A stretch of 64,000 bases of DNA from Patescibacteria group bacterium (GTDB lineage Bacteria > Patescibacteriota > Patescibacteriia > JBAZBY01). Every line of letters begins with the position of its first letter. Positions within the stretch are counted from its first letter, which is position 1. Shown one piece after another: positions 24,808 to 48,385 of this stretch. Under the pieces are notes generated by a model. That model was not told where the DNA came from. It ran no database searches and worked only from the letters and a program-made list of their open reading frames with translations. The position numbers and the translations under genes were made by a program. Location: contig JBAZBY010000001.1 of NCBI GenBank assembly GCA_041671225.1, positions 494,940 to 558,939 on the forward strand, given 5' to 3'.

Positions 24808-24846
24808 GGCTGTTCGTGATATAATAGCCCTACATTTTTAATACCT

Positions 24847-25669: not shown

Positions 25670-28600
25670 ATGAACGAACGGGGGCAAAATCAAGAATCAA
25701 AACCGCGCCGCGGTTTTAGTATTCGCATGGCTATTGCGGCATTTGTGTTGGTGGCCATTCTTATTGGCGGAGTAGTGTTCCTTTTTCCTCGTCCTGTGCA
25801 GGCATTTCCTGGTGAGGCGCTTGCCGCTGCCGCATGGAAGGAAATTCGCGATTCTTTGCGTTATCTTGGCCAGAATCTTAATACCATTCGCAAAGATGCA
25901 CTGAAGGTAACCTACGATATTACGTACAAGAATACGTTGCGGCTGTATCTTTCTCGCATTGCGGAAGATACAGCGGTGTGGGTTGCATCCGCAGGCACCG
26001 GCCAAGAGCCGCTTTTTATCACTGACCCAAAATATTTTCAAAAATTGAATGATGCCGCCGTTGGTGATTTTGTTGCGCGCATTTCAACGCAGACGTTTGG
26101 TACGGATCTTTCGCCACTCATTGGGACGCAGGTGTTTAAGGATCCTAAATCCCTTGCATTGGTTCGCCGCGTTGTCACAACCCTCACTTCTCCAGATAAA
26201 AAGACACAGTCATGTAATGATTTTTGTATTCCAACAGCGGAGGGAAGTGAACAAAAACTCCAAGCGGTTCGTAAGTGGCAGAGTGAAGGGCTTGAACATT
26301 TAGTTCCTGATGATCCCAAAGATTTAGGCCCAGTGGTTAATTGTCCTGTATCGATCGATGATGATGACAAGTATACCCTCTATTGGAAGGATGGCGAGAT
26401 CGACTCAAGAAGTATCATGGAGTGGCCAAAAATTGAAGCACGGGTGTGTCATGGATTGCTCTCAAGTTACATTGGACAATTAAAAACAGAAGCACAGGCA
26501 ACCTTTCAGGCATGTCTCAATGAATGTAAGGCTTTTTCTGGTCAACGTGGAAAATCAGCGGCAGAAACGTGGACGAATCTCAAAGCTGTGGATCTTGGAG
26601 CTGCTGTTGAGTCATATTATTCTCTTGAAAATAATCATTTCGGCGTCGCGCTCTCACTCTATAATGAGGCGGCAAAGGCAGGCCGTGAAGAAGAAAAGGC
26701 TCTACGCGATATCACTCCAGAAGGAGGCCTGAAGCCATTAGTATCGCCAGTTAGTGGCGCGGTGCTCACCCCGAGCGTTCTTACTGAGGAGCGGGCAACA
26801 CAAGCAGTGCAAGAATCCACTTCCGCGGAAAAAATTCAGACAGGATCGCCGTGGGCTGATGCGCTTGGCGTGTTTTCAAACACATTGGTGCAGAAGCTCA
26901 CCGAACGCTTTTTTGCGGGCAAGTGCGGACTCAACCCCAAGGAATGCGCAGGGCCATCAGGAAGTCCGGGTACGTCTGATTTAGGTTCATTGCTTTTTAG
27001 TGGTCAGCGTCTTACAAGCATTGCTGCTGCGCGGTTGCAGTTCGCCTCTTTGGCGCAGATCAGCTATTCAGTAGGAAGTCCTTCAAGCGATACCTATTCT
27101 AGCGTTGATGAACTTACGGCGAGCGGCGTTCTTGATGCTGGGTTTGCTCAGGCAATTGAGCAACGCTTCACTGTTCAGGAGGCCATTAATAATGGTTTGC
27201 TACAGGGTGAGCGTACGTTTGGTTTTGATGCACAACGCAATGACCCCGGGAGTAATGGATATGGGTATCGGGCAATGGTGTATCTCCGACGCGCGCGCAT
27301 TATTCCTGTGGGTTGGGAACTTGCGGCACAGTATATTCGTGAGTATGAGAACAGCGGAAATGTTTTGAGTCTACAACGCGTGGTGGATGCGTTCTTTGAT
27401 TGTGGCATAGACGGTACTGATGCCTCACCTTACTGCGGTCTTGTTGATCCCAACTGGGTTCTCAAAGCACCGGAACAATTCTGTAAACGCGCGGGCGCTG
27501 GAGACGAAATTATTTCACGTGATTTCGTTTGCGACGAAGATACGAATGCGGACGGACGCATCAATTGTTCCGCCGACCCTGTTTTTGGCGGAGACCTTGG
27601 ACGCTGGGTATTGCAACGTGACCAAAATCAATGCGTGGATGTGCAGGATTGTATTCTTGAAAATGATGATGGTACCTGTATCGCCTTTGGGTATTGCTTT
27701 GAAGAAAAGCCAATATGGCGTTTTGATGGGGAGGCATGTCCTTCGTATTACACATCATGTCAAAGTTACGAGAATACCGCCGGAAACATTTCCGCGTACC
27801 TTGCAGACACCGTCAATATAGATTCATGTACTGCTGAGAATGCGGGATGTCAGGGGTACTGTGCAGAATCGAGCTATTGGGGATCGCGTGATCAATGGAC
27901 ATGTACCGCAGACAGCGGGAAGATTGTCTATGCTGATGATGATATTCAATCCTGTAATGAACAAGAGTCTGGTTGCAATGAATATATTCGGACAACCAAT
28001 GGTACGAATCTCGTTCCGAACGGGAGTTTTGAAATATATACCGGTACTATTGATGACACGACTGATGATAGCTTTGCAGGATGGAGTGGTGCTGCTCTTG
28101 CGGTATCGAGCACCAATACTTCATTTGGCGCGGATAATGTTGTTGTTGCAGAAATTGCTGCAAGCGGGAGTTTGCAAGCACGAATTCAAACCGGCACGCC
28201 AATGGCAGGCCGTTCGTTTACCGTTGGTTTAAACACAAAAGGCGCAACAGGCACGTGCAGTGGTACGCTGCAGGTGTCATCAGGTTTGTATAGCCCGCCC
28301 GTCGTTCCTGTTTCGTTTGGCTCATTCTGGCAGCAGAATGCCAGTACTTTTTCCGTACCAAACAACGCATCAGCAGATACGTATGTTGATATAGAAATTA
28401 TCCCTACCGGTTGCGCCGGTCAGATTGATGTCGCTTATCTCACGCTTGGCGATGCCTTCTATAATTATACAGACTACGGTACAACGAATCGCATCTATCT
28501 CAATGCCTATGGTGATAATCTTTTGGCAAACAGTGATTTTTCCTATGACGCGGGAAAAGATTTTGATCCAGACTGGGTAGGCGATAACACCACTGAGAAT

Positions 28601-31363
28601 GATACTGTTCCTGATGGGTGGTCAGGAGGGGGTATTGATAAGCTCAGTGGGGGGTATGATGACAAAACTGCGGTGAAGCTTGAGGGTGGAGGGGATCAAT
28701 GGACGGGTCAGGATATTCCTGTTGTACAGGGCAAAGATTATGTGGTGAGCGGTTGGGTGCGCTCAGAGAATGCCGGCGGCTCCGGAACAGTTCGCACAGA
28801 GTGCGTTGATGCAAACCATAATACTCTTGATGACCACACATGTGAGTTGTGGAGTCGGACGAATAACTGGAATTGGGAACCACAGATCACGAATAGCGAA
28901 TGGACGTTTGTGCAGTACCGTATTCATGCCAATTTGAGCAACGTCGATTTTGTTCGCGTCTTCTGTTATAAGTACGGCGGCAGCGGATCCCTGTGGTGTG
29001 ATAATCTTCGCCTTGAGGAAGTTCCAGAGAGCCTGCTTTGTAATACGGAGGATGTTGGCTGCGAACTTTACACCGCGGTAGAAGATGGCAATGAGATTCC
29101 TGGCATCGCCACATCACAGGATCAATGCGCCGAGGATCAGGTTGGGTGTAAGGCATATCAAGAAGAAGGCATTGATCGTATTCCGATTCGCGACCCGGCT
29201 GATCCCGTCTATTTGATTGCAAAAACTGGCCAGAAGTGCAGTGCCGCAGCTGTTGGGTGTGAAGAATACACCAATCTCAATAAACTCGCAGAAGGCGGTG
29301 AGGCGCTAACCTATTTCACAAATGCCCGTCTTTGCGTGCCGCAAGATCATTCGCTCGTTGTTGCGAATCCTACTGATCACCTCTTTTATTCATGGGTTGG
29401 TACCGCGGAAGATGGATATCAGCTCCGTAAGTGGAATCTTCTGAAGAGTAATTTTGACAATGGTCCGTGTACGAATGTTTCACCGGGAACGGTAACAACC
29501 GAGCCAACATGTAATGATACCCTGACGACTAGGGCGGTATGTGGTCCGGACGCGGGAAATCCCACCGAGCTCTTCAGCAATCCGGATTGCGTTGAATTCT
29601 TTGATGGAAATGCAAACCCGTATTATCGGTATGTTTCACGAACAATTCCTGTTTCTGCAGAGTGTACGCCGTTCCGCAATACCATTGATGAGGCCGCGAA
29701 CAAGGATATCATTTATCATATTCTTCCAAGCGCATCACGAACATGCAGCGCTGCTCAGGCTTTTTGTCGCGAATATAAAGGCTCCACCGGCCAAAATAGA
29801 GTTCAGGTTTTCTATGATGATTTTGAAGACGGCGCAGCAGATGGTTGGGCACCGACGATTATTTCATTTGAATCGCTCACAGGTGGCGGCCACTCTCTTT
29901 CAACCGGAGCAGGAAACACCGTTACGCGCCTGGTCTCGGACATCGCACAAGAAGGGCAGTCATATTTGATCCGCTTGTGGGCAAAGGCGCGGGGTACGGG
30001 GAATCCAACTGATACCATTGCTGCCAAATTTACTAATGGGACTGAAACAGATCAGGCGACAACATCAATAACTCCTGGCGAGTGGAACGCATACACCATT
30101 GGTCCCATCACTATTGATCATCAGGTGAATCCAGGAGAGCAGTTCACCCTTACGCTTGCGGGCGGCGGCTGGGTGGATAACATTGAGATCATTGCAAACG
30201 TCAGCAGCGCGTATCTTATTCAAGGCACGGCAGACACGTGCGATGAGGCAAATGTGAACTGTGCCGCATATCGCACTCGTACGAATGAAACGGTTGCGCT
30301 CAAATCATTCACGCGACTGTGTTCAGAGGAGCAGATTGGTTGTGAGGCGCTTATTGATACGCAAAATTCTGAATCACCGTTCAGCCAGACCGTGCATGGC
30401 ACGACCACGCCAAAGGATAACGCTATTGCGGTGATTAATGATCCGCGCAGGGCATGCAGCGCGCAGGCCGCGGGCTGTGAACCATTTGGTATAGCGAGTT
30501 ATGTGGCCGACGGCACGGTTGCTGATTTCCAGACAACCTATCTTGTGAACGAACCTGATGCGCATGAAAGTATTCTTTGTGATGCGGCTGCGAATTTTTG
30601 CAGGGAATATAACGTACCAGAGACAGGGGGAGTGTCATACTTTAAGGATCCTATTACCCGCTCTTGTGATTATCGCGTCGGTCAGAGTTATTTAGGAACG
30701 GATGTCACTGGGTGGTTCAAGACGGATACCAATGAACTCTGCCCATCGTATAATTTGTGGTGTAAAGTGGGCGGTACCATTCAACCGGCAAATACGCCAA
30801 CACAGCTTGATGCGTGTCTTGCCGTTGATAAGCCATTTATCTATCCAACCAACGGATACAGTCCGCTTACGAAGATTTTCTGTACGGTGGATCCAGGATT
30901 GGATTGTTCGGAAGCACTTCAGGCGGCTGCTTGTCGCACAGGTGGTGGCAGTTGTGTAGCACCGGGGTTGCCCTCTGCGGTATGCGACGGCGGCGATGAT
31001 GATGGCTTTGCCTGTCGCACTGACGCGGATTGCACCAACGGGGGTGCCTGTACGGATGTGTATACCGGCCTGTGTACCACAGCGTTTTCAGGTTGTAACG
31101 CGTATCGGGATCCATTAGACCCAGTCGGGTGTCAGGTGGAATGCAACAATGAGATCGACGCGAGCGGTAATTCGGTTCCGGTCAATGCGTCATGCGAACC
31201 CGATGCAGCTGCAACAACGCCAGGCTGCACCACCTATACGTATATTCGCTCCAGCGTTGAAGGCCGTTCTGCAGATTGTAATAATCAGGTAGACTTTGAA
31301 CGTGGCTGCCGGCCATTCTACGATTCGTCAAACCCAAGTACTTTATTTAACGTTGTCCCATAA
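25670..31363 (+). CDS. Giant (1897 aa) cysteine-rich surface protein with CBM4/9-like beta-sandwich modules
   Basis: N-terminal TM helix. A C-x(4-5)-G-C-x-x-[YF] motif recurs more than ten times (e.g. CTAENAGCQGY, CNEQESGCNEY, CAEDQVGCKAY, CSEEQIGCEAL). CBM-like starts NLVPNGSFE...GWSG and DFEDGAADGW. Confidence 0.8.
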   Translation: MNERGQNQESKPRRGFSIRMAIAAFVLVAILIGGVVFLFPRPVQAFPGEALAAAAWKEIRDSLRYLGQNLNTIRKDALKVTYDITYKNTLRLYLSRIAEDTAVWVASAGTGQEPLFITDPKYFQKLNDAAVGDFVARISTQTFGTDLSPLIGTQVFKDPKSLALVRRVVTTLTSPDKKTQSCNDFCIPTAEGSEQKLQAVRKWQSEGLEHLVPDDPKDLGPVVNCPVSIDDDDKYTLYWKDGEIDSRSIMEWPKIEARVCHGLLSSYIGQLKTEAQATFQACLNECKAFSGQRGKSAAETWTNLKAVDLGAAVESYYSLENNHFGVALSLYNEAAKAGREEEKALRDITPEGGLKPLVSPVSGAVLTPSVLTEERATQAVQESTSAEKIQTGSPWADALGVFSNTLVQKLTERFFAGKCGLNPKECAGPSGSPGTSDLGSLLFSGQRLTSIAAARLQFASLAQISYSVGSPSSDTYSSVDELTASGVLDAGFAQAIEQRFTVQEAINNGLLQGERTFGFDAQRNDPGSNGYGYRAMVYLRRARIIPVGWELAAQYIREYENSGNVLSLQRVVDAFFDCGIDGTDASPYCGLVDPNWVLKAPEQFCKRAGAGDEIISRDFVCDEDTNADGRINCSADPVFGGDLGRWVLQRDQNQCVDVQDCILENDDGTCIAFGYCFEEKPIWRFDGEACPSYYTSCQSYENTAGNISAYLADTVNIDSCTAENAGCQGYCAESSYWGSRDQWTCTADSGKIVYADDDIQSCNEQESGCNEYIRTTNGTNLVPNGSFEIYTGTIDDTTDDSFAGWSGAALAVSSTNTSFGADNVVVAEIAASGSLQARIQTGTPMAGRSFTVGLNTKGATGTCSGTLQVSSGLYSPPVVPVSFGSFWQQNASTFSVPNNASADTYVDIEIIPTGCAGQIDVAYLTLGDAFYNYTDYGTTNRIYLNAYGDNLLANSDFSYDAGKDFDPDWVGDNTTENDTVPDGWSGGGIDKLSGGYDDKTAVKLEGGGDQWTGQDIPVVQGKDYVVSGWVRSENAGGSGTVRTECVDANHNTLDDHTCELWSRTNNWNWEPQITNSEWTFVQYRIHANLSNVDFVRVFCYKYGGSGSLWCDNLRLEEVPESLLCNTEDVGCELYTAVEDGNEIPGIATSQDQCAEDQVGCKAYQEEGIDRIPIRDPADPVYLIAKTGQKCSAAAVGCEEYTNLNKLAEGGEALTYFTNARLCVPQDHSLVVANPTDHLFYSWVGTAEDGYQLRKWNLLKSNFDNGPCTNVSPGTVTTEPTCNDTLTTRAVCGPDAGNPTELFSNPDCVEFFDGNANPYYRYVSRTIPVSAECTPFRNTIDEAANKDIIYHILPSASRTCSAAQAFCREYKGSTGQNRVQVFYDDFEDGAADGWAPTIISFESLTGGGHSLSTGAGNTVTRLVSDIAQEGQSYLIRLWAKARGTGNPTDTIAAKFTNGTETDQATTSITPGEWNAYTIGPITIDHQVNPGEQFTLTLAGGGWVDNIEIIANVSSAYLIQGTADTCDEANVNCAAYRTRTNETVALKSFTRLCSEEQIGCEALIDTQNSESPFSQTVHGTTTPKDNAIAVINDPRRACSAQAAGCEPFGIASYVADGTVADFQTTYLVNEPDAHESILCDAAANFCREYNVPETGGVSYFKDPITRSCDYRVGQSYLGTDVTGWFKTDTNELCPSYNLWCKVGGTIQPANTPTQLDACLAVDKPFIYPTNGYSPLTKIFCTVDPGLDCSEALQAAACRTGGGSCVAPGLPSAVCDGGDDDGFACRTDADCTNGGACTDVYTGLCTTAFSGCNAYRDPLDPVGCQVECNNEIDASGNSVPVNASCEPDAAATTPGCTTYTYIRSSVEGRSADCNNQVDFERGCRPFYDSSNPSTLFNVVP

Positions 31364-31386
31364 TGAGACTTAAGGAGGTGAAATAT

Positions 31387-34300
31387 ATGCGCCCTATTAT
31401 CACAGGAGTTTTACTCCTGGCAGTCAGTTTTGCTACTGCAGCGTTTGTGTTTCCTAGTGAAGTGCACGCACTGCCGAATGATATTCTGTATACCAACCAC
31501 CAGGATAGCATTACCCCAAAAGGGATAATACTTGATGGATCCTTTATTTGGGTTATAAGTCACACTCAGGATGGGTATCCGAGTATCGGCAACGGCCTCT
31601 TTAAGTTAAACAAGAGCGATCTCTCCATTGCACTTTCTGTTGTGAATCCTGAGCCGACGGTTATGGATCAAGATATTGTTATTGCTGGGGGCTATGTTTG
31701 GTGGATTAAAGGCCATATTATTTATCGCCTTGATGCCGCGGGTAATATTATTCACACATATAATTATCAAAATCTTAATCCCATACTTGAGGAGTTTTAT
31801 AATTGTGATTCTTTTGGCAAGGCAGTGTCCGATGGTACGTATCTTTATGTCGCGAATGCAGTCACTGCGGGGTCTGGTATTTGTAAGATACGGATAACGG
31901 ATGGCGTGGTAATGGATTGGTTTCCAGTCGGTGAGCAGTACGACACCATCTTGGATATTTTTTATCTAAATGGCAATCTGTATTTTTACCGCAAGATAAC
32001 CGGAGATATTGTTGAGATGAATCCAAGCACCGGTGCTTTTCTGCGACACCAGTCGGCGGGGGGCTTAAGTACCGCACCCACAGAAACCGGAGATTTTATT
32101 GGGACGTCCCCTGATTTCATTAACCGTTTAACCGGCTCGACCTTTACTGTGGATCATACATATAGTGCACTCGCCCACGACTTTAGCTTTTCCCTTGCTG
32201 CTCCTGGCTCAGGAAAGCACATTCTTTTTGCTGGCAATAAGATCAACTATATATCAGAACCGCCGAATGGATTGGATGAAATCAGTACGCCGGATTATAC
32301 CCTACTCAACGCCGAGACCGTTTATGATGGGGTTCTTGATGGAAATATTCTGTATACTATTTCTGGTCCTGCTATTGCGCGGTATGACCTCACTGCCTTT
32401 TTGGGCATTCCCGTGACTGGTCCTGCAACCGATGAAATTCCTTCGCTCGGCGTTATGATAACAAGTGATCCAACGGCAACGGTTGCTGGCAACACTGCGA
32501 ATTTTGCATGGCAGACTGCCCCCAATCCCGGAACAAGTTGGGGCTCATATCGTGATAGCGACCCCATATCCATGACATCAATGAATATCACCACAGAAAC
32601 GTTGCGTGATATTGATTGCCAGGGCACGCGTTGCTTTGCCGTTGGGCATAACGGCGTGATTCATCGCAGTACCAATGTCACGACCTGGAGCGCGCAGACA
32701 TCCGGAACCAGTAATGATCTCTTCAGCGTTTCTGCCGTATCCCCTGATATAGCGTGGGCAGTTGGGGAAGCCGGAACCATTTTGAGGACTGCCAATGGAG
32801 GCAGTACATGGACAGCGCAGACATCACCCTATGGCACTGTTGCGCACATTAACAGCGTGTTTGCCATTGATAGCAATACCGCATGGGCAGTCACCAGTAC
32901 CGGCAAGGTTATACGCACGACTGATGGCTATGCATGGTCAGAGGCGGCTTCACTTGCAACAAATGTCCCAATGAATGCCATCATGTTCGCAAAAAACAGC
33001 GATGGCACGCTTTCGGGTTGTGTTGCGGGGGACGCTGGTAACCTCTGGCGCTATGATAGTGGTACAACGTTCACAAAATTGACCACAAATGATACCTCAT
33101 CTGGTCTTGAAGGCTGTTCGGTTTCTACACAGCCAGGGAGTCATACCGCATTTCAAATGTTTGGCGTTGCGCGCAACGGGAAGGTCTGGCGCCATGATTA
33201 CTCAGGAACAGGAACAACCTCACTCACGAACCCCCTCTTTTCTGGTTTAGCACACAAGAGCGTACAAATGTATCCTGGCGGGCGGGTCTGGATCGGCGAT
33301 TCAAATGGCAAGGCACTCTATTCTGATGATGCAGGTCTTTCATGGACATTGATCAATCTTGGCGCTTCCACGACCGGATTCCTCGGGCTGTATGTCTATG
33401 AACCGACCGACGTCGTCTTTGTGGGAACCAACGGTGGTAACTTCCGTTATCAGGCAATTTATGGAACCACTTTTGGGCCGTCTACCTATCTCAATTCACA
33501 TAACATCCCCACACCAGCGCTCGCAGAACTCACAACGTATCATTACAAAGTTGCCTCACAAACCGCAGCGGGCGCGTATGTTGGGAGTTGGGATTATACT
33601 TTTGATACCGGTTTTGATGACACCACTCCGCCAACATGGCCAACGCCAAACGTCAACGGCACAAAGGCTTGCAGCGGAAGCACCATACAGTACACATTAA
33701 CGTGGGATCAGGCAACGGATGCAGAATCCGGTATTGACCACTATGAAGTCTGGCGATCGGTCAACTCTTCATTACCCACGAGCTACTCAAAGGTCAATGG
33801 AAATATTGCCGCAACAGGGCCTTACACCCTCACTGATCCGGGGCCGTTGAATCCGGGTTCAACGTATCGCTATATTGTCCGCGCGTATAATCGTGCCGAG
33901 CTATATACTGAATCGCCGGTACATTCCATTGTACCCGGAACGCCAACATTCAATATCACATGGGAAGGTCCTCAACCATTGCCGCCGCATGTAACGGTTA
34001 CCAAAGGCGATCCCGGCGTGTACCAGATCAATGTGACGCGTGATTGGTGTTTTGCCGGAACAATTGCTTGGAGCTATGTCAGTTCAACGCCGCCGACCGG
34101 CCAACCTGCAATGGCAGGCACAATGTATACCTTTGGCCCGGAGACGAGCGGTATTGTGCAGATGAATGTTGCAACATCAGCCCTCGGCCTGGGGACCTAC
34201 ACGAATATGAAGGTGAAGGGTGTCAGTGGCACCACAAAGTATGTTGACCTTGCAAAACTCACCATCGAGTCTACTGATACTACCCCGCCATCAGCCCCCA

Positions 34301-36492
34301 CTGTTGATGGTGAACTGCAATGTTCCGGCACAACAGGCCGGACTATTGTGCTCAATTGGAGCGAGGCGGTGGATCTAGAAACCGGCATCAGCAAATATGA
34401 AGTATATCGCTGCACCGGAGCCTCATGCACGTTCCCCACGACTCCTCTTACAACGCTGACAGGTTCGCCACCCCCAACAACATATACCGACGCTACCGTC
34501 TCACCAAATTTGACGTATAAGTATAAGGTGATCGCGTATAACGGTGGTGTTCCTCCAATGCCTATCACTTCCAACATCTTTACGAAGAGTACCACTACCG
34601 CAGATTGCGATAATGACATATCTGCACCAACCGCTCCGGTCTTGACAGTAACTGCGGAGTGTAGCCTAGGGAATCTTCATAACGTGAGTCTTTCATGGAC
34701 TCCCGCGGTGGATAATGAATCCAATATCGTACGATATGAAATCTTCCGCAATGGAACGTTGATCGCAACAGTCGGCGGGGGAACAACTTCCTATCCAGAT
34801 CTTGGTCTTGCGCCGGGAACATACAGTTATGTCATTGACGCGTGGAATGATGCAACACCTGCGCTCAAGGTATCAAGCCAAGCCAAGAGTATCACGCTGG
34901 ATGCCGCCGGCCTTTCTGTGAATGTCATTGCGCCGGCAACAAAGTCAATTACCGTGGCAAGCGGCAACCCTGCAGTCTACACCGTGCAGGTGACGCCGCA
35001 AGGATGTTTTGCCGACGTCGCAACGTTATCACTAGGAACGGTGCCTGCGCCTATCAGCACAAGCAACACAACCTTTAACCCGTCCACATTGGCGCTTTCT
35101 GGCGGCGCACCAAAGTCAGCACTCATGACCATTGATACCACTGGATTTTTATCCGGAACTTATCAACCGATAAACATCAATGCCAACTCTCCCACGGCAA
35201 ATGCAAGTGTGCCGCAGAGTCCAAATCCAGTAACGCTCATCATTGATAGCAGTGTTTGTACGGATGGAACCCCAAATTTAACGTGCGTTGAGGAACGCAC
35301 TGGGAATGAATCTGACCTGCCAGTATTCTGCGATACGAGCCAGACCCCAGAACTCTTTGACAATTGCGGAGATGCCAGTGGACCGATTTGTGGATGCCCA
35401 GTGTGGACTGCAACCCCTGCAACAGACAAACCATACTGTAATATAACAACCGGTTCATGTGAGTTGAAGTGTTCGGATGGAACAGATCACCTCACTTGCT
35501 CAACGGTGACTCCCGGTTCATATTGTGACCTCACTGAGAGTTTTGACCCGGTTGAGAATTGTAATGAATGTGATGCGCCGGGTGACGGGTATTGTGACGC
35601 CGCAAATGAAATGTGTGATGCAGATACAGGATTGTGCGAAATCGATGATATTCCCCCCGCATTAACCTGCCCAGTCACATGCGTTGGAGGAACCGATTAC
35701 ATCACTGTTTCATGGTGTACTGATGAAGATGCCACATCGCTGGTAAATTATGGTCTTGCTTCAGGTTTTTTGCCTGGTTCAAAGGGTGATACTGCATACG
35801 TGAAGAATCACACTGTCAATATTACTGGATTACTTCCGGATGCAGAGTATTATTATCGCGCATTGAGTAAAGATATATTTGGGAATCTCTTCACGTCACC
35901 AGAAATGACCTGTAGCACTGCGTCCATACCAGATGGAGAGCCACCATCATGTGACATTACTGACCCATTAAATGGCGCGACTGTTTCAAACACCATTCCC
36001 TTCAGTGCGATTGCTTCAGACAATATTGGTGTAGTCGGAGTCGATTTTACAGCGGCGAGTGTTTTTCAAACAACAGTTACAACCCCCCCATACACAATGT
36101 CACTGAACACAAAAGCACTTCCTGATGGCACTGTGCAGCTGAGCATCAAAGCGCGCGATGGCGCATCTCCTGTACCGAACACATGTGAAAAGGATATTTT
36201 AGTAACCGTGAATAACGATGCGGCTGGTCCGCAGCTTGTGGGAGATATTGATTATGAATTCTTTAACTCTGGCAGAAACGTACGTATCAGATGGACCACT
36301 GATGAAGCATCGAGTGGAGAACTGCGATATGGAGAACAAGGAAAACAAAACACATGGACAGAATCAGTGCCCTATTCACTTGCGACCTCGCATGAGATCG
36401 AACTCGGTCCATTTCCGTTTGGTTTCCCAGTTGGATTTGCAATTTGGGCCTGTGATGCGTTGAGTAATTGTAATTACTTGTCTCCCAACTAA
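31387..36492 (+). CDS. Giant (about 1700 aa) surface protein with BNR/Asp-box beta-propeller repeats, FN3 domains and a Cys-rich C-region
   Basis: SD TAAGGAGGTG at 31371-31380, then ATG at 31387 with a signal peptide. Asp-box motifs (SxDxGxTW: ANGGSTWTAQ, SDDAGLSWT). FN3 repeats (WDQATDAESGIDHYEVWRS; WSEAVDLETGISKYEVYRC). C-terminal purple-acid-phosphatase-N-like FN3. Confidence 0.8.
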   Translation: MRPIITGVLLLAVSFATAAFVFPSEVHALPNDILYTNHQDSITPKGIILDGSFIWVISHTQDGYPSIGNGLFKLNKSDLSIALSVVNPEPTVMDQDIVIAGGYVWWIKGHIIYRLDAAGNIIHTYNYQNLNPILEEFYNCDSFGKAVSDGTYLYVANAVTAGSGICKIRITDGVVMDWFPVGEQYDTILDIFYLNGNLYFYRKITGDIVEMNPSTGAFLRHQSAGGLSTAPTETGDFIGTSPDFINRLTGSTFTVDHTYSALAHDFSFSLAAPGSGKHILFAGNKINYISEPPNGLDEISTPDYTLLNAETVYDGVLDGNILYTISGPAIARYDLTAFLGIPVTGPATDEIPSLGVMITSDPTATVAGNTANFAWQTAPNPGTSWGSYRDSDPISMTSMNITTETLRDIDCQGTRCFAVGHNGVIHRSTNVTTWSAQTSGTSNDLFSVSAVSPDIAWAVGEAGTILRTANGGSTWTAQTSPYGTVAHINSVFAIDSNTAWAVTSTGKVIRTTDGYAWSEAASLATNVPMNAIMFAKNSDGTLSGCVAGDAGNLWRYDSGTTFTKLTTNDTSSGLEGCSVSTQPGSHTAFQMFGVARNGKVWRHDYSGTGTTSLTNPLFSGLAHKSVQMYPGGRVWIGDSNGKALYSDDAGLSWTLINLGASTTGFLGLYVYEPTDVVFVGTNGGNFRYQAIYGTTFGPSTYLNSHNIPTPALAELTTYHYKVASQTAAGAYVGSWDYTFDTGFDDTTPPTWPTPNVNGTKACSGSTIQYTLTWDQATDAESGIDHYEVWRSVNSSLPTSYSKVNGNIAATGPYTLTDPGPLNPGSTYRYIVRAYNRAELYTESPVHSIVPGTPTFNITWEGPQPLPPHVTVTKGDPGVYQINVTRDWCFAGTIAWSYVSSTPPTGQPAMAGTMYTFGPETSGIVQMNVATSALGLGTYTNMKVKGVSGTTKYVDLAKLTIESTDTTPPSAPTVDGELQCSGTTGRTIVLNWSEAVDLETGISKYEVYRCTGASCTFPTTPLTTLTGSPPPTTYTDATVSPNLTYKYKVIAYNGGVPPMPITSNIFTKSTTTADCDNDISAPTAPVLTVTAECSLGNLHNVSLSWTPAVDNESNIVRYEIFRNGTLIATVGGGTTSYPDLGLAPGTYSYVIDAWNDATPALKVSSQAKSITLDAAGLSVNVIAPATKSITVASGNPAVYTVQVTPQGCFADVATLSLGTVPAPISTSNTTFNPSTLALSGGAPKSALMTIDTTGFLSGTYQPININANSPTANASVPQSPNPVTLIIDSSVCTDGTPNLTCVEERTGNESDLPVFCDTSQTPELFDNCGDASGPICGCPVWTATPATDKPYCNITTGSCELKCSDGTDHLTCSTVTPGSYCDLTESFDPVENCNECDAPGDGYCDAANEMCDADTGLCEIDDIPPALTCPVTCVGGTDYITVSWCTDEDATSLVNYGLASGFLPGSKGDTAYVKNHTVNITGLLPDAEYYYRALSKDIFGNLFTSPEMTCSTASIPDGEPPSCDITDPLNGATVSNTIPFSAIASDNIGVVGVDFTAASVFQTTVTTPPYTMSLNTKALPDGTVQLSIKARDGASPVPNTCEKDILVTVNNDAAGPQLVGDIDYEFFNSGRNVRIRWTTDEASSGELRYGEQGKQNTWTESVPYSLATSHEIELGPFPFGFPVGFAIWACDALSNCNYLSPN

Positions 36493-39400
36493 TGACGAAT
36501 CGCCTTTACAATACGGTGTTCCGCTCGCTCCTGCAGCTTGTTGTTGTTTTTGGGGGTATGGTGCTATTTGTGCAGTCAGTATCTGCGTTGGCCATTAATC
36601 CTCCTGGGCCAAGGGTGCAATCTGTCACCGCGACAAGCGCAACGGTGTATTGGACAACTGACGCAGCTGCTGATGCAACGGTTGAACTAACAGATACCGT
36701 TACTGGTACAGTAAAATCAAGCACTATCAGTGCGCCTTCTACGATCCACACGGTTATTGTTGAATCTTTGTCGCCTTCAACCACATATACGTATACCGTA
36801 ACATCATTTGATGGCACTAATACTGTCAGTGCGACAGGCGCCACAAATATTGTAACACCGGCAAATATCGGCGATACCACTGCTCCAAAACTTCTTTCTC
36901 CTGGCGTGGGCGTGAGTTGTGGTGCTGTTTCGTGTACGGCGTATGTGCTGTATCAATCCGACGAGTTGGCTATTTCAAAGGTATGGTGGGGTCTTACGTC
37001 ACCCCCAGCAAACGGACCACTCACCACAGGCATTTATGACACGAATTTCTCAACATCAATTACGTCTTTGTCGCATGCAACCGATTATTTCTATACCATT
37101 CATCTTCAGGATGCAGCTGGTAACTTCCGGGAATACGGACCGTTAACCTTTACGACATGCGCTGTCGGAGAAATCGGATGTTTTTCCGTTGGCCAGTGTT
37201 TTGATGGCACGCCGCTTGGTTCATGTAATGAAAAGGCAGAATATTGCGACGGCGGCACGCTCGAACTCAACTGCACAGCATGCGGCTATCAATGCCAAAT
37301 TGGCGCAACATGCAAGACAGGCGGCGCCTGCATCAGTGATCCGCCCGTAACGGACAATACCTATCAATGTAATCCCATTTCTTGTTATGAGCCGGATGGA
37401 ACCTTCACCCAACCCGCTGGCGCAGGGTGCTTTCGCAGCTGGCCAAAGTGTAACTCAAATGTCGTGCTCAAGGTCCGCAATGATCGCGAATGCAAGCGCT
37501 GGATTGATTGCAGAAGTTCCATCGAGGTCAAAGATCCTGTTTCAAAGAGCGTGCAGCAGCTTTGCACAAGCCTTGCCAATTGCGCGCAGATTGACGTTAC
37601 CACCGGTGAGTGCACGCGCTTCTTGCCTGAACGGCAATGCCAGTTCAATCCCGGGCGTTTTTGTTCAAAAAATGAAGATTGCGCTGTTTTTGATGAAGGC
37701 GATTGTCTCCCCGCAGGAACTTCCAGCGCGTTGACCTTTAACACGAACCGCGATCTTGGGAATATTCGTTATCTGACGGGCGCGGTCAAGGCGGGACTGG
37801 AATGGAGCGCTGGTGGTGCGGTATCAGGGCAGTACCCCTGGGCGTTTGCGCGTGAGGATGGGGCATCCGTGAATGTGCTTGATAACAATGAGTTCGAAGA
37901 TGTTGAGGAAGTGTACACGCGTGATGCTCAAGGTGTTGCTATAACAAAAAAGCAATTTACTACGGACCCATGGTTCCCGGTTGGCGGGGTTATAAATGCT
38001 GGTACGCCTCAACAAGAAAATCTTGAATTGGATACAAATGGCAAAGCGTCAAAAATAACAGTGAATAGCGAAAATGCGCAGGATTTGAATAATCCAAATC
38101 ATGTTCTCTGGATATATCCAAACAGTAATGAATTTTCAGGTGCGCGTGCCCCTGTTTCCGGATTTTTTGCAACTGATAAGGATCAATATCAGATATCCTT
38201 GCGTATCAAGGGTACCGGTCTCTCTGATCAGGTTGTTCTCATTCAGCTTTTGCACAAAAATACTCTTGGAGAATTTGAGTACCCTGAAGACGCACGCACA
38301 TACGTGAAATTGACAACAGGATGGCAGAATGTTGCGTTTCAGGCGAATGGCGTTTCAAGTACAACATATCTTCAAATTGTGAATACATTCGGCGGACAGT
38401 GTCTTGGGGCTGGCACGTATTGCCGTGAAGATAGTGAATGTCCGGACGTTGCGTTTGGCAAGCCCGGCAAATGCATGGGCGCCCTTGATCAGGTTGCTGA
38501 CCCAAGTCCATTTTTAGTTGATGATGTATATATTCAGCCATCCCTGAAAGTTTCGAATTCAGACTCGATTGCCCGTTCGTGCCGTTTGTTTCCACGCGGG
38601 GATTCACTCTCCTGCGCGTATAATGACCAAAATGGCATACAATATCAAGGCTGGCGCGGTTTTTGTCTGGAGCAAGATCCCAGTAACGCATCAAAGTGCG
38701 TTTCATGGTGGCCGGTTGACGTGATTGCCGGCGACACCGCTGTTTTGGGGAGTTTTGGTGGAGAAACGCAAGACGGGTATGCCGGCCGCAAACCTGTTTA
38801 TTACTGTCTTGAGGCTGCTGGCAGAGCAATGGGCGTTGAGATAGATCGCTATCAGATTACGGCAAAGTACTTCATGAGCCGTTGTGCAAACTGCACGTTT
38901 CCTGATTTTCCCGATGCAGGTTGGCCGGAGAGTACATCTGAGTGTAATGGAAAAGAATCAGGTGGCGTCTGGGGCGAGTCCTTTTGGGTCTGTGGCGATA
39001 ATGAATCATCAAGCTGGGACATCGAGCCAGATTGGCCGGAATATGATTTTTACCAGTATGAAATTGATAGTATTGAGGTTAAGCGAACAAATGGACGCGG
39101 TGAATACCCCGCAAATTTCTTCTTAACGGAAGAAGATCGGCATCTTGATAGTTCTAATAATGAATACTGGGAATTTGTTCAAGCCAGCAGCTCAACGAAG
39201 AACTTACTACGATTTCAAGTGCATTTTGATGTGAATGGGAAGGTTGCCAGTTATTCTGCAGAAACCGACGATGATACGGAGGACAAAAACGAACCCGGAT
39301 TATTTCTTATCTACTACCATATGAGGGAATGGTGTAACAAGATTGTTCAGGTTGTTGATGACAGTGGTCAGAACAAAGCATGGACACAACGCCTACAGCC

Positions 39401-40868
39401 GTCATCCTCCTATAGCGTTCCAGATCTTAACTATAACCTAGCGACAGATTTTACCCCGTTTGGAGGCATTATTCCGCCACCAGGAACTCCTGAATCATGG
39501 GATGGTGATGTGGGGCGTAATGGAAACCAGCCTCTGTATATTGAGGCTCCACAGATAAATGACCCTGCATTACAGGAACCACTGTATCAAGCTCGCGCGG
39601 GAACCCCCTATGCGTGCCTTGAGAACTGTGATGCACGGCTTTGCGCGGCAGCAGGGAATAAAACAGGAGCATTTTGTAAGAACGCCGATGATTGTGTTGG
39701 TGAGGCTGCTGGGCTACCAGTGTTTGGACGATGTATTGGAGTGGGGACATGTGAGAATACTGCACGACACTGCAACATAAATTATACTTGTCCCGCAAAA
39801 CCAGGCACAGAGCAGACCGAGCAATGTATCGGTGGTGATGCATCATATAAAGGAGGGCAGGCGTTTACTTATAATCAATCAAGTATCTGCTCGCAATCTG
39901 GTAATTATTGTTCAAAAACGAGTGTCGGCCTGTGTTATATTACGGTTAATCTCCCGGTGGGTGGACCTGTTACGCTTCCTACTGGCACATCGTGTTCAGA
40001 TCCCATAGAGTGTGCTGGACCCAACGCAACATGCGTGCCCACGCCTACTGGTGATGGAAGTGAATTCTGCGAAGGTGTTGGTGATGTTTGCACTTCTGTT
40101 TCTGGAAAGGCAACATTTGCCGTGCGCAGACTGCAGCGTCTTTTTGCAGAAAGCTATGGCGCATGGCAATGGAATAACGAGACAAGAAGGTATGAACGCC
40201 TGAACGGGAATGTGACATGGGATCCTCCTTCAAAGGTGTGTAATGTCCGGTGGTGTGAAGATAATAGTGGACGTGGATGTGTGTCAGATCTTGATTGTTC
40301 GGGTAGTACCTGTAGTCCAAACATTACGCCCGGAGTGCGTCCACCAACCTATAATGACACAGTAGCCGCTGCTGATTTGGATTATTGCGGTGTGCCGCCG
40401 CAGATATTCAATGTCTCCGTCAATGGAGAAGAAACAACAACTCGCGAGAGCGATGATATTGTGCGGTTTGAATTCAACACAACGGCGGATCCAAACCAAT
40501 TGCCACTTGAAAGCATTCTTGTGAACTGGGGCGACGGAGATGTGCAGGGACTTTCCTTCCCGTATGCGCCAAAACAGGATACGGATAACCCGCACGTATT
40601 CATCCATGCATACTCCTGTATTGATGGAACAGAAGGTGAAGATGATGGGCGGCTTGATATCTGCACCTTCAAGCCAAAGGCGCTTGTGCGTGATAATTGG
40701 GGATTCTGTAATAATTTCTGGAACAGCGATCCCACTGCTCCGTCAACCTTGAAATGCGATATTGATAATACGGATGTATGGGCGCCAAATGAATGGTTCA
40801 CAGAACCCGGCGGTAAGCAGCAAGAAGAAGTGCTGGTGATTATTAACGCGGAGACTCCGGCGCCGTAA
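36492..40868 (+). CDS. Giant (1458 aa) cysteine-rich surface protein with N-terminal FN3 domains
   Basis: TAATG stop/start overlap with the upstream gene. Signal/TM segment. FN3 at the N-terminus (PRVQSVTATSATVYWTTDAAADATVELTD). Many Cys-pairs. Confidence 0.8.
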   Translation: MTNRLYNTVFRSLLQLVVVFGGMVLFVQSVSALAINPPGPRVQSVTATSATVYWTTDAAADATVELTDTVTGTVKSSTISAPSTIHTVIVESLSPSTTYTYTVTSFDGTNTVSATGATNIVTPANIGDTTAPKLLSPGVGVSCGAVSCTAYVLYQSDELAISKVWWGLTSPPANGPLTTGIYDTNFSTSITSLSHATDYFYTIHLQDAAGNFREYGPLTFTTCAVGEIGCFSVGQCFDGTPLGSCNEKAEYCDGGTLELNCTACGYQCQIGATCKTGGACISDPPVTDNTYQCNPISCYEPDGTFTQPAGAGCFRSWPKCNSNVVLKVRNDRECKRWIDCRSSIEVKDPVSKSVQQLCTSLANCAQIDVTTGECTRFLPERQCQFNPGRFCSKNEDCAVFDEGDCLPAGTSSALTFNTNRDLGNIRYLTGAVKAGLEWSAGGAVSGQYPWAFAREDGASVNVLDNNEFEDVEEVYTRDAQGVAITKKQFTTDPWFPVGGVINAGTPQQENLELDTNGKASKITVNSENAQDLNNPNHVLWIYPNSNEFSGARAPVSGFFATDKDQYQISLRIKGTGLSDQVVLIQLLHKNTLGEFEYPEDARTYVKLTTGWQNVAFQANGVSSTTYLQIVNTFGGQCLGAGTYCREDSECPDVAFGKPGKCMGALDQVADPSPFLVDDVYIQPSLKVSNSDSIARSCRLFPRGDSLSCAYNDQNGIQYQGWRGFCLEQDPSNASKCVSWWPVDVIAGDTAVLGSFGGETQDGYAGRKPVYYCLEAAGRAMGVEIDRYQITAKYFMSRCANCTFPDFPDAGWPESTSECNGKESGGVWGESFWVCGDNESSSWDIEPDWPEYDFYQYEIDSIEVKRTNGRGEYPANFFLTEEDRHLDSSNNEYWEFVQASSSTKNLLRFQVHFDVNGKVASYSAETDDDTEDKNEPGLFLIYYHMREWCNKIVQVVDDSGQNKAWTQRLQPSSSYSVPDLNYNLATDFTPFGGIIPPPGTPESWDGDVGRNGNQPLYIEAPQINDPALQEPLYQARAGTPYACLENCDARLCAAAGNKTGAFCKNADDCVGEAAGLPVFGRCIGVGTCENTARHCNINYTCPAKPGTEQTEQCIGGDASYKGGQAFTYNQSSICSQSGNYCSKTSVGLCYITVNLPVGGPVTLPTGTSCSDPIECAGPNATCVPTPTGDGSEFCEGVGDVCTSVSGKATFAVRRLQRLFAESYGAWQWNNETRRYERLNGNVTWDPPSKVCNVRWCEDNSGRGCVSDLDCSGSTCSPNITPGVRPPTYNDTVAAADLDYCGVPPQIFNVSVNGEETTTRESDDIVRFEFNTTADPNQLPLESILVNWGDGDVQGLSFPYAPKQDTDNPHVFIHAYSCIDGTEGEDDGRLDICTFKPKALVRDNWGFCNNFWNSDPTAPSTLKCDIDNTDVWAPNEWFTEPGGKQQEEVLVIINAETPAP

Positions 40869-40869
40869 T

Positions 40870-43800
40870 ATGCAGAAACACCTGCACAATCTACGAAATA
40901 TTCTCAACCGCGTTTTTGGCATACGAGCGCCTCATAAACGCGTTGTTCTGTTGGTAGGCGTTCTGTCCGTTGCCGTAGGCGTCTTTTTTGCGTTGCAGTT
41001 CGTGAAGGCAGATGCCGGAGAAACCGTTGTTCGCATTGCAACCAATGCATTCACAAGTCTTCTTGCGGAGATCGTTATTTATATTGACAAACTTCTTGCG
41101 CGCCTGCTTGTGGTGCTTTCCAACATCATGATAGCCGCTGCGTCATATAATGATTTTGTGAATGCTCCGGCAGTTGAGAAGGGCTGGACGATCGTGCGCG
41201 ATCTCGCAAATATGTTCTTCATTGTCGTGCTTCTGGTCATTTCTTTTGGCACGATCCTTCGCATTCAGCAGTATCGCTTTCAGCAGACGTTGCCGCGCTT
41301 CATCATTTGGGCGGTACTCATCAACTTTTCCAAGTTCATCGCCGGCGTGTGGATCGATTTTGCGCAGGTCATCACGCTGACGTTTGTGAATGCATTTAGA
41401 GATGCCGCTGCGGGGAATATCGTGGATGCCTTTGGGTTGCGCGAGATGCTCACCTTTTTGAATGATGGATCCACGATCAGCGCAGATGCAGGCGATGTTC
41501 TTGGTGCGGTTATCCTTTCGCTCGCGTTGCTCATCATTGCAAACGTCGTTATTTTTTCTCTTGCAATCACCTTTCTTTTTCGCATCGTTGCCTTGTGGCT
41601 CTTGGTGGTGCTCTCTCCGATCGCGTATGTGACGCGCACGTTTCCGAATGCGACAAAGTATTCTGATCAGTGGTGGACAATGTTCAACAAATATGTGATG
41701 ACCGGCCCTGTGCTTGCCTTCTTTATTTGGCTCGCCTTGACGATTATCGCGACGCCGGGACCGGATAATCTCCCTTATTTGCAGGGCGTCGTCGGCACTA
41801 TTGATGATGCGACCCAGACAGCCGGGTATGACGTTGTTAATGCGACCAGTGCCGGCGGTTATGGACTTGCCGCGTCAATCAGCGCAATTAGCAGTAGCGA
41901 TCGCCTGCTTTCTTTTATACTTTCGATCGGGCTTTTTATCTCAGCTTTGATGGCGACGCAACAGCTTGGTGTGATGGGCAGCGGCGTCGCTGGTTCCGCG
42001 CTGAAGGGCATTCAGAAGGGCGCGCTGGGGACCGCACGCTGGGTTGCGCGGAGACCAGGAGCCATGGGTTCATGGACTGCAAGAAAGATCAAGGCGGGTC
42101 GCGCGCCAGGGCCGCTGAAGAGACTTGCTGGCGTTGATTTTAACCCCGCCAATTTTGTGCGAGGCGTTCGCAAGGGTATGGCAAACAAGCGCATTGAAGA
42201 AGAACTGGAAGGTACGCGCGAATCTGGCGCCAAGGCAAGGCAATCCGGGGGACTCAAAGCTGCGATTTATGCCGGGGGAACCCCAGAAGATTTTCAGCGG
42301 GAATACATGAGCGGATTCATCTATAATCGCGGGCTTCAACGTTTGGGCATGAATGCTTCAGAAAAAGCCGAATCGATCAGAACACAGGCTTTGGAAGAAA
42401 AAAAGAAAAAAGAATCCCTTGAGATGCTTGCGCAAACTCCGGATCCCGAGACCTACATGGAGAATGATTTGAATAGCAGGATAGATATTCATGAACAGGA
42501 ATTAAAAGCGAAAACTAATCAGATCGAGGAAGGCGATACTATTGAGAAAAGGCTTCTTGTTCGCCGAGATGCACTTGAGAAGCTGAAAAAGCCAAAAGAG
42601 GGGCAAGCAGTAGACCAAAATAAGGTCGAAGCTGAAGAGGCAGCTATTGCGGACTTGGAAGTGAAAAAACAGACCTTCTTGGAGAATAAAAAGAATTTTG
42701 GGGAACAGTGGGAGGAGGATAGAGCTGCTTTGGACACAGAATTGACGGCATTGAAGACACAGCGGGCTTCGGTTTTTGGCGTAGGAGCAGACGGTACGCC
42801 AGCGCTGGACCCGAACGACAGATATACAGCAGCCATGCAGTATGTTGAGGAGCAACACCAAAAGAAGGTCGTAGAACGAGACCGCGTTCAACGCGGCGGC
42901 ATTACTGACGCACAAATAGAAGAGCGCAAGGCTCTGATACGAGCAGCACGGCAGAAGGACAGAACAGCAGCAAAGGAACAAGATTCTCTTATTGAAAAAA
43001 AGGATACTGCGCATCCTGAGGAGCTTGCAAAGCTCAATGCGCAGCTTGAAGAGTTGCAGAAATTACGGGAGGGCATTGCAGCATGGATGGCGCGAATTGA
43101 TGATGGCGGGAAAACGCGATTAACACGTGACGATTATAAGAACCATCAACAGACATTGGGCGAGGGCAGGGAGACAGAAGATGAGAGGTTCAAAAAGGAA
43201 GAAATAGACGTTGATGGCAAAAAAACTGGGCGCACCATGGGCGAGGCGTTGATTAAGGGATTAAATGAGGCATTGACCGAAGACACAGAGCAGCTCGATG
43301 CCATGAGAACCATTACAGAGGCACAGCGGGAGCAATATAGAATACTGGCCGCAGAAGCAGGCACAGCACAGAAGAAATTGGAAGATAAGGCCATGGAAGC
43401 ATCAAAATGGGTGTTTCAGGACTTTAGCGCTCGCGCCGCGGGCCGCACTGCCGCGTCTATTGCAGCCAAAAATGTTGATACAGAAAATGAACATGAGCTT
43501 ATCCAGCTTTTTAAATCTGCATTGAATAATGATGACAAAGGTTTGGCAGAAGCAGTGATGCGGGAAGCAGCAGCAGTGGGGCACTTGAATGAATTGGTGA
43601 ATGCAGAGGGATTCATCGCGAACCAGGACGGGCTTAATCAGTTTGTTAATAAGACCCTTGTTGATAAGCTCGGCATGGACAAGCAAATTGCTTATGGCAT
43701 CCAGAATGACGCTTCAGAAATGGCGCAGCGAATTAATCACTGGACCTTTGCGCAATCTGTCGGCGTCAAGAGCGGACAATATTATCAACGCACTCCGTAT

Positions 43801-45575: not shown

Positions 45576-45577
45576 GT

Positions 45578-45877
45578 ATGAATATTTCGATCCCTCAGCC
45601 GGCATATCAGCCAGTAGTGCTTCTTCGTGCTGCAGGATATGCGCCATTTCGCGACCCAAAGACCGGTGAAGGTTCATTTGTGCGGCGACTTGGCACAGAA
45701 TTTTATCCGCGATTCCATATTTATGTGATAAAGGACACGGATGATGTTTTGGACCTTACGCTGCATTTGGATCAACGGCGCCCAAGCTATACTGGCAGCC
45801 GCGCACACAATGGTGAGTACGACGGACCGCAGATTGAGGCGGAGAGGACGAGGATTCTTTCACGTATTCCACAGTAA
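45578..45877 (+). CDS. Hypothetical small protein
   Basis: 99 aa ORF starting 3 nt after the upstream stop; no motif recognised. Confidence 0.4.
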   Translation: MNISIPQPAYQPVVLLRAAGYAPFRDPKTGEGSFVRRLGTEFYPRFHIYVIKDTDDVLDLTLHLDQRRPSYTGSRAHNGEYDGPQIEAERTRILSRIPQ

Positions 45878-45882
45878 GCAGC

Positions 45883-45911
45883 ATAAATATATTGCGGAGA
45901 TGCGGTGTTTT
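45883..45911 (+). promoter_or_regulatory. Promoter-like element with extended -10 (TTGCGG-17-TGgTATAAT)
   Basis: TTGCGG 45883-45888, 17-nt spacer, TATAAT 45906-45911 preceded by TGG. Confidence 0.4.
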
Positions 45912-46046: not shown

Positions 46047-46052
46047 AATCAA

Positions 46053-47912: not shown

Positions 47913-47921
47913 GGAATATAT

Positions 47922-48383: not shown

Positions 48384-48385
48384 TT

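Follow-up and report, generated by a model that had tools for sequence, protein, structure and literature searches.

The type IV secretion systems (T4SSs) of Patescibacteria are of the monoderm type, and KsgA is often encoded nearby (Quinonero-Coronel et al. 2025, PMC12102498). Monoderm T4SSs depend on surface adhesins for cell contact, and in Patescibacteria "no adhesins, such as PrgB, were detected" (PMC12102498). The T4SS is essential in Southlakia epibionticum, the only species in which this was examined, and according to reviews its role is completely unknown. In Peribacteria, large Cys-rich extracellular proteins bearing signal peptides have been described, and a function in attachment was suggested for them (Anantharaman et al. 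2016, PMC4736985). Here, a stretch of 64,000 nucleotides (nt) from a Patescibacteria group bacterium (GenBank assembly GCA_041671225.1, contig JBAZBY010000001.1, positions 494,940 to 558,939), referred to as the window, was analyzed, in which three giant genes, designated A, B and C, precede a gene for a VirB6-like T4SS subunit, designated D. Comparative analysis indicated that A and C are the separated halves of one giant Cys-rich protein, which is encoded ahead of VirB6 in most of the related loci examined.

Both the gene set and the gene order of the locus are like those of the MPF-FATA-like T4SS of Patescibacteria (PMC12102498; Wang et al. 2023, PMC10633639), with an extended VirB6, PrgI/VirB3, TrsD, VirB4, VirB2-like pilins and a lytic transglycosylase, and the chromosomal location and the nearby KsgA are also alike. 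All testable defining genes are present, and the locus is a monoderm-type (MPF-FATA-like) Patescibacteria T4SS. Unlike the window, the loci in the published studies of Patescibacteria T4SSs are described with no giant Cys-rich protein. An earlier note, made from the sequence alone, had placed the three giant genes directly upstream of a T4SS-like locus. The T4SS genes were confirmed downstream by matches to PrgI, TrsD, VirB4, T4SS_pilin and SLT, and D itself, while without a Pfam match, has homologues at 34-45% identity that carry PF19590 or PF04610 (TrbL/VirB6 families), together with seven predicted transmembrane (TM) segments within residues 25-364, after which comes a long tail that is charged and helical. 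As D is a VirB6-like subunit, the giants lie inside the T4SS operon and not merely 5' of it.

The three open reading frames (ORFs), of 1897, 1709 and 1458 amino acids (aa), were found exactly where the earlier note had located them, as was the TAATG stop/start overlap between B and C; the A/B junction, which had been given as ATGA at 31361-31364, reads TAATG instead (stop TAA at 31361-63, start ATG at 31363-65). The gene order is a promoter-like site, a gene designated 'up', A, B, C, D (VirB6), E, F, PrgI, TrsD, VirB4 and the pilin/SLT genes, and the spacing is tight, with intergenic gaps of 7 nt (up/A), -1 nt (A/B), -1 nt (B/C), 1 nt (C/D, so that D starts one base past the C stop) and 14 nt (D/E). 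The promoter-like site lies 22 nt 5' of 'up' and is the sole near-consensus site between 23.8 and 43.7 kilobases (kb). Homologues of 'up' immediately 5' of a giant gene were represented by 26 ORFs in related loci. The A protein is identical to NCBI entry WCV86_03930 (hypothetical protein; metagenome-assembled genome, Patescibacteria group bacterium), which is encoded on a contig of 1.03 Mb. The locus is chromosomal, with the housekeeping genes for LeuRS, Sua5, KsgA, PNPase, RecG and tRNA-Arg as neighbours in the window. A plasmid or phage origin was rejected, given the housekeeping context and tblastn searches with A that matched none of 72,556 plasmids and none of 50,697 phage records; an RNA element was also rejected, as the only Rfam match was a tRNA.

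The usual relative of A is a single ORF of 2,400-3,200 aa, with 80-130 Cys and 7-11 copies of the Cys motif described below, located immediately before VirB6. Domain-level phmmer searches aligned fused ORFs first to A residues ~20-1890 and next to C residues ~300-1420 (e.g., loci L017, L022, L024, L028, L048, L062 and L082). Among 155 family members, 86 were such A-then-C fusions (median 2,884 aa), and the remaining 69 matched the A half only (median 1,958 aa). Since single ORFs are collinear with A and then C in most relatives, A and C are two halves of one protein, that is, a split form of a conserved protein of ~3,000 residues with more than 100 Cys. The possibility that they are paralogous duplicates was rejected, as BLASTP detected no significant similarity between them. 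By an exhaustive HMMER search, the family comprises 1,286 clusters at 50% identity (E<=1e-3), or 1,059 at E<=1e-30, with typical lengths of 2,500-3,600 aa; a repeat homologue search with a nine-sequence profile of A returned only already-known matches, and its word index probably saturates for such long queries. The named family members are all Patescibacteria of the Parcubacteria group (Kerfeld-, Falkow-, Uhr-, Buchanan-, Veblen- and Nomurabacteria). One member of the A family elsewhere (P0087) is annotated as dockerin-containing.

Genes resembling B were found in split-type loci only, namely in the window, in L003 (Ca. Nomurabacteria CP060223) and in L007, L088, L089 and L090 (partial), and B is a clade-specific insert at the A|C break point. 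A split at the same boundary was found elsewhere (L011, L012, L073, L054 and L076) with different inserts (one protein of 1123 aa that contains 74 Cys, one of 834 aa, or two genes of 775 and 689 aa) or with none, so that the A|C boundary looks like a recurrent fission/insertion site. Because the fused form is more widespread, fission in the clade of the window would be the more economical reading, with the direction unproven. The first ~300 residues of C comprise a signal peptide and FN3-like modules and are an addition that would allow separate export of the C half.

The co-occurrence of the giant and the T4SS was examined in both directions. An alignment of eight VirB6-like-domain sequences was scanned against one genome per species (GTDB), which gave at least 554 relatives, and 80 loci with 10-kb flanks were kept. 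Fifty-two of these had at least 9 kb of upstream sequence, and in 42 of the 52 a giant of the A/C type was located no more than 10 kb upstream of VirB6 (no more than 300 nt in 16). In the reverse direction, a homologue of A was followed by a VirB6-like gene in all six informative loci. The usual order in the 80 loci was KsgA, 'up', giant, VirB6, E, F, PrgI, TrsD and VirB4. In Falkowbacteria-like loci (L025, L034, L040, L045, L042, L050 and L053), a conserved block of 3-8 smaller genes stands between the giant and VirB6 or fills all 10 kb upstream, and the genes of these blocks encode proteins of ~410, 550 and 270-400 aa, or form longer series.

It is possible that this adjacency only reflects a gene order inherited around KsgA and the region of the replication origin, in which case the giants would be general surface proteins for glycan binding or adhesion, or an envelope/S-layer-like scaffold, that function independently of the T4SS; this explanation appears rather unlikely. 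The LeuRS, Sua5 and KsgA synteny upstream is also kept in close relatives, many surface proteins of bacteria have CBM-, FN3-, Ig- and propeller-type modules, and a second giant surface protein that is unrelated to the T4SS is encoded at 9757-14517. Large Cys-rich extracellular proteins are, moreover, a general Candidate Phyla Radiation (CPR) trait (PMC4736985), and the same explanation would readily accommodate the loci with intervening genes and those with no giant within 10 kb. However, adjacency holds at A identities of 27-35% with differing upstream housekeeping genes (L005 and many of L008-L087), the giant is always co-oriented with VirB6, gene junctions are tight or overlapping, and split giants keep both halves and any insert before VirB6 (L011, L012, L073 and L076).

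The Cys units of A were also analyzed. Ten matches to C-x5-[GF]-C-x2-[YFL] were identified in A, in addition to one variant at residue 690, while 0.09 matches were expected and at most two were obtained in 2,000 residue shuffles. The pattern had no match in B, C or D and no more than one in each remaining ORF of the window. The earlier note had reported at least ten copies and listed nine peptides, all of which were recovered, at A residues 720, 762, 1124, 1153, 1190, 1359, 1551, 1596 and 1637; the tenth is at residue 1802. The spacing, which had been given as C-x(4-5)-G-C, is always x5 before the G, i.e., C-x6-C, and never x4. Across homologues of 27-59% identity the units occupy aligned positions with both Cys invariant, and therefore they are no local accident. 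In a sequence logo compiled from 58 proteins with 382 units, the consensus is [LST]-C-[SPN]-A-x-x-[VA]-G(87%)-C-[ETRQ]-[EA]-[YFL], and the flanks are unconserved. Searches of A against the curated models of Pfam (E<=0.01) and NCBIfam (E<=0.1) yielded CBM_4_9 only and no Cys-repeat family, such as the Myxococcus cysteine-rich repeat.

An AlphaFold2 (AF2) model of A residues 1115-1700, which was based on a 41-sequence alignment, had a predicted local distance difference test score (pLDDT) of 85.9 and a predicted template-modelling score (pTM) of 0.75. Six of the seven modelled units shared a DSSP pattern consisting of a short helical turn with a bridge residue, Cys, a one-turn helix in an 8-residue loop, and Cys, and the beta-strand that opens a hairpin begins right after the second Cys. 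The remaining unit, at residue 1596, was modelled with lower confidence (pLDDT 56-62 in that stretch), and its loop has no helical turn. The loop geometry and the joint invariance of both Cys fit a disulfide staple, and each C-x6-C unit of the model may thus be a staple at the entry of a hairpin.

Foldseek searches of the AF2 models against PDB and BFVD matched the jelly-roll at A residues ~1377-1517 only. The matches were to CBM22 of xylanases (4xup/1h6y; E ~5e-6 to 3e-5 over ~145-160 residues, with a root-mean-square deviation of ~4-5 A), to receptor-binding domain 1 (RBD1) of the binary toxins CDTb (9mui; E ~1e-5 to 1e-6) and Ib, and to phage tail/receptor-binding proteins. The hairpin scaffold of A had no match in PDB or BFVD. 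Together with the CBM_4_9 match above the Pfam cut-off at residues 979-1063, the jelly-roll in the model agrees with the CBM4/9-like sandwiches that had been noted in A. When a profile of the A family was searched against all PDB sequences, CBM chains and no T4SS protein were obtained at E<=1. The best 50 Foldseek matches listed for the model of A residues 1115-1700 also included no T4SS structural entry, and for the N-terminal ~750 residues of A no PDB match had E<0.7.

The domain architecture of B consists of a signal peptide, an N-terminal repeat region, a Ycf48/BNR-like propeller, FN3 modules, a Cys-rich linker, an FN3 of the Pur_ac_phosph_N type, and Big_7. A BNR/Asp-box propeller combined with FN3 modules had been proposed for B, which was right in kind: the propeller is borderline in Pfam (PSII_BNR, 26.2 bits, just under the cut-off of 27), has only two Asp-box-like motifs by regular-expression search, and matches Ycf48 in PDB at E=6e-7 over ~250 residues. 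The first module of C is FN3-like (DUF7800, 30.4 bits versus a cut-off of 27), in line with the FN3 start that had been claimed for C, and the second module resembles an FN3 of B (E=0.005). Against PDB, C matched FN3 of fibronectin only (E=0.04). The three proteins are of the surface type that had been suspected, being secreted and multi-domain with CBM-like, FN3, Ig-like and propeller modules, and these domain types suggest a glycan-binding or adhesin activity.

CBM4/9/22 modules usually accompany glycoside hydrolases, and ~600 residues of A and ~1,100 of C have no assigned fold, so that the giants might also be considered a complex that degrades the host envelope or harvests nutrients, with a catalytic domain too divergent to be recognized. 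Such an enzyme complex is very improbable: no catalytic family was matched at any threshold used, and the confidently modelled parts with no known fold are hairpin arrays and helices, not enzyme-like folds.

Hydropathy analysis indicated that 'up', A, B and C each have one N-terminal hydrophobic segment and no further TM segment, and in A, B and C these segments are predicted Sec-type export signals. The earlier note had raised the possibility that the giants are the cargo or the partner of the secretion system. The partner option was strengthened, by adjacency kept across many species, co-orientation and tight spacing to VirB6, and cargo became the weaker option, because proteins with N-terminal Sec-type signals need no T4SS to leave the cytoplasm. 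As cargo, the giants would be released or delivered to the host, for example by a two-step route, Sec and then T4SS, as for pertussis toxin. Most Patescibacteria T4SS loci have no coupling protein and relaxase nearby, similar to Ptl, which exports a Sec-delivered toxin (PMC12102498; PMC12857230); neither was found among those ORFs of the window that were scanned against Pfam, a subset of the window and of the genome. The jelly-roll also resembles the receptor-binding domains of CDTb and Ib. Delivery as cargo is nevertheless improbable. The cells are monoderm, so that a Sec-exported protein is already beyond the only membrane, the conserved N-terminal hydrophobic segment of A may hold the protein anchored, and proteins of 1,500-3,600 residues that probably contain dozens of disulfides could not plausibly pass a T4SS channel. 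Pfam, NCBIfam and PDB searches of A, B and C detected no domain of a toxin, an enzyme or a known T4SS component, and a polymorphic-toxin reading was rejected, as the C-terminus is conserved and carries no toxin domain.

We lean, with modest confidence, towards A, B and C being a Sec-exported, disulfide-stiffened extracellular component through which the T4SS contacts the host. In such a mechanism, the proteins would be exported by Sec, and A would be kept near the membrane by its N-terminal hydrophobic segment and helical domain. Outside the cell, the protein would fold into a rigid array of disulfide-stapled beta-hairpins, in which each C-x6-C would close a loop of one turn where a hairpin begins, and this array would carry the CBM-like jelly-rolls. 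The array and B would then form the host-facing extracellular part of the T4SS and grip a polymer on the host cell surface, and this grip would let the VirB4/VirB6/pilin machine act across the contact. A more specific possibility, which we put forward tentatively, is that the A/C giant is built into the T4SS of Parcubacteria-group lineages as an extracellular structural subunit, where it would serve as a disulfide-stapled stalk or docking platform anchored beside the extended VirB6 and bridge the epibiont wall and the host envelope.

Several observations weigh against a host-contact component of the T4SS. The association between the giant and the T4SS is correlative and comes from conserved synteny, and its giant-to-T4SS direction rests on six loci. 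In ten of the 52 informative VirB6 loci a giant is missing from the 10 kb examined (a few may have one past the flank), and several lineages have 3-8 small genes between the giant and VirB6. Neither an LPxT[GAS] motif nor a C-terminal TM segment was present in A, B or C, which leaves them with no recognizable cell-wall anchor. The N-terminal model of A is of low confidence (pLDDT 61.8 overall, with confident sub-domains at ~180-290 and 470-610), and only a mostly helical character was drawn from it. In addition, the locus of S. epibionticum (Saccharimonadia; SEML1_0005-0019) contains no obvious member of the giant family, and therefore the A/C family is a lineage-restricted accessory and not a universal core part. 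In that species an essential pilin array precedes VirB6 (SEML1_0013), while the pilin-domain genes of the window follow VirB4 (supplementary tables of Wang et al. 2023); the giant and the pilin array hold equivalent positions in different classes.

Table. Coordinates of the features of the giant genes and of the T4SS locus (positions in the window; residues refer to the protein named)
Feature	Position	Strand	Description
Promoter-like site	24797-24825	+	TTGACG-17-TATAAT with TG; consensus match only, 11/12 positions
'up'	24847-25662	+	271 aa, one N-terminal TM segment, bacterial TSP3-like (Ca-binding type) repeat
Gene A	25670-31363	+	1897 aa, 73 Cys; N-terminal half of conserved giant T4SS-linked protein
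A residues 21-39	25730-25786	+	Lone N-terminal hydrophobic segment (Sec signal or signal-anchor), then PVQA/FPGE
A residues ~45-689	25802-27736	+	Conserved N-terminal region, mostly long helices, invariant columns in homologues
Cys unit variant CPSYYTSCQSY, A 690	27737-27769	+	Kept in homologues
Cys unit CTAENAGCQGY, A 720	27827-27859	+	
Cys unit CNEQESGCNEY, A 762	27953-27985	+	Immediately before first jelly-roll module
A residues ~775-945	27992-28504	+	First CBM4-like beta-sandwich, weak: laminarinase 16A CBM 1gui, E=0.012 (profile vs PDB)
A residues 979-1063	28604-28858	+	Pfam CBM_4_9, 26.9 bits vs cut-off 25.9
Cys unit CNTEDVGCELY, A 1124	29039-29071	+	AF2 DSSP pattern available
Cys unit CAEDQVGCKAY, A 1153	29126-29158	+	
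Cys unit CSAAAVGCEEY, A 1190	29237-29269	+	Best-conserved copy, consensus VGCEEYTNL
Cys unit CSAAQAFCREY, A 1359	29744-29776	+	
A residues ~1377-1517	29798-30220	+	CBM22/CBM4_9-like jelly-roll (AF2 model; profile vs PDB 4xup, E=5e-5)
Cys unit CSEEQIGCEAL, A 1551	30320-30352	+	
Cys unit CSAQAAGCEPF, A 1596	30455-30487	+	
Cys unit CDAAANFCREY, A 1637	30578-30610	+	
Cys unit CTTAFSGCNAY, A 1802	31073-31105	+	Tenth copy
TAATG stop/start overlap A/B	31361-31365	+	
Gene B	31363-36492	+	1709 aa, 38 Cys; clade-specific insert between giant halves
B residues 411-696	32593-33450	+	Ycf48-like beta-propeller, Asp-box-like motifs at 476 and 654
TAATG stop/start overlap B/C	36490-36494	+	
Gene C	36492-40868	+	1458 aa, 67 Cys; signal peptide and FN3-like modules, then C-terminal giant half
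C residues ~300-1420	37389-40751	+	Collinear with C-terminal half of fused giants; unmatched in Pfam
Gene D	40870-44205	+	1111 aa, 0 Cys; extended VirB6/TrbL-like subunit
Rest of T4SS locus	44220-55551	+	E, small ORF, F, PrgI/VirB3, TrsD, VirB4, G, pilin-domain protein, PD40 propeller protein, pilin+SLT
Small ORF	45578-45877	+	99 aa, in 477-nt E-F gap; 46-52% identity in L009, L011, L012
PrgI/VirB3	47922-48383	+	PF12666, 36.6 bits vs cut-off 27
TrsD-like	48386-49063	+	225 aa; NCBIfam TrsD 9e-7, VirB4_plasma 2.5e-10
VirB4	49065-51047	+	660 aa; P-loop_TraG 4e-29, AAA_10, CagE_TrbE_VirB
Pilin-domain protein	51606-52916	+	T4SS_pilin (PF18895), 27.7 bits vs cut-off 26.6
PD40 propeller protein	52920-54167	+	
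Pilin+SLT protein	54232-55551	+	T4SS_pilin, 27.9 bits vs cut-off 26.6; SLT 2e-10

Further features of the T4SS locus were observed. VirB4 is represented by two abutting genes (TrsD-like and VirB4, with a 1-nt gap), in agreement with the TrsD-VirB4 pairing reported for Patescibacteria; at locus L005, a TraC-like protein occupies the TrsD position. The protein encoded at 54232-55551 combines a VirB2-like pilin domain and an SLT lytic transglycosylase domain, and its listed start is TTG, so that the true start may differ. Between E and F, an extended -10-like sequence, TGGTATAAT, is located at 45912-45920, 3' of the 99-aa ORF, and a hairpin with a T-run is located at 46020-46045, just before F; these two elements may mark an internal transcription boundary.

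Elsewhere in the window, the second giant, at 9757-14517 (+ strand), is a secreted 1586-aa protein that contains FG-GAP repeats and six CarboxypepD_reg-like domains; as it lies away from the T4SS, the genome carries several large surface proteins. A dockerin-type-I-bearing Ig-like protein and a weakly cohesin-like protein (E=2.8e-4, below the cut-off) are encoded side by side at 103-804 and 764-1924 (both + strand) and may represent a cohesin-dockerin pair of a CPR genome. At 3193-4912 (- strand), a tyrosine recombinase (Phage_integrase, XerC/D-like) overlaps an ORF that encodes a type IV pilin-like protein bearing an N_methyl motif. The GC content is 0.54-0.57 at 56000-64000 and ~0.47-0.50 in the remaining window.

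Patescibacteria represent a large share of bacterial diversity and seemingly live attached to other cells. In the literature searched, no paper was found that links the A/C family to a T4SS or describes the A|C fusion/fission or the staple unit. Located directly before VirB6 in most of the Parcubacteria-group genomes examined, the A/C giant is a specific candidate for the component that is missing from the Patescibacteria T4SS and makes contact with the host, and it offers a handle for cryo-electron tomography, proteomics and the prediction of host range. How the module diversifies is shown by the recurring A|C break point and its lineage-specific inserts, and the C-x6-C staple-plus-hairpin would be a compact structural motif, unmatched in the libraries searched.

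Two better-known systems have large surface proteins in a comparable position or role. In Enterococcus pCF10, the genes for PrgA, PrgB and PrgC come first in a monoderm T4SS operon and precede those for the channel. The likeness to the giants lies in their being large secreted surface proteins with a role in cell-cell contact (adhesin role: PMC12102498), a role that is proposed here for the giants. PrgB-type adhesins differ in having a polymer-adhesin domain and an LPXTG anchor, neither of which was detected in A, B or C by Pfam and motif scans, and A-C are 3-10 times richer in Cys than the pCF10 adhesins, much larger, and set in an apparently non-conjugative context. CagY of H. pylori is a very large surface-exposed T4SS protein with many short Cys-containing repeats and is implicated in host contact. 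It is, however, part of a diderm T4SS and contains a VirB10 domain, and its repeats are unrelated to those of A in sequence and fold.

Other proteins resemble the giants in their modules or by description. The beta-jelly-roll fold is common to CBM4, CBM9, CBM22, CDTb RBD1/Ib and at least two modules of A, whereas in A the jelly-rolls are set in a predicted disulfide-stapled hairpin scaffold and have no catalytic or pore-forming partner domain. The Cys-rich proteins of Peribacteria (PMC4736985) are alike by description only; they belong to another lineage and to a 14-gene cluster with no stated T4SS link. In conclusion, the resemblance of the giants to PrgA/B/C of pCF10 and to CagY can be taken as analogy only, and the giants stand outside the PrgB adhesin family, any curated Cys-repeat family and any solved T4SS component.

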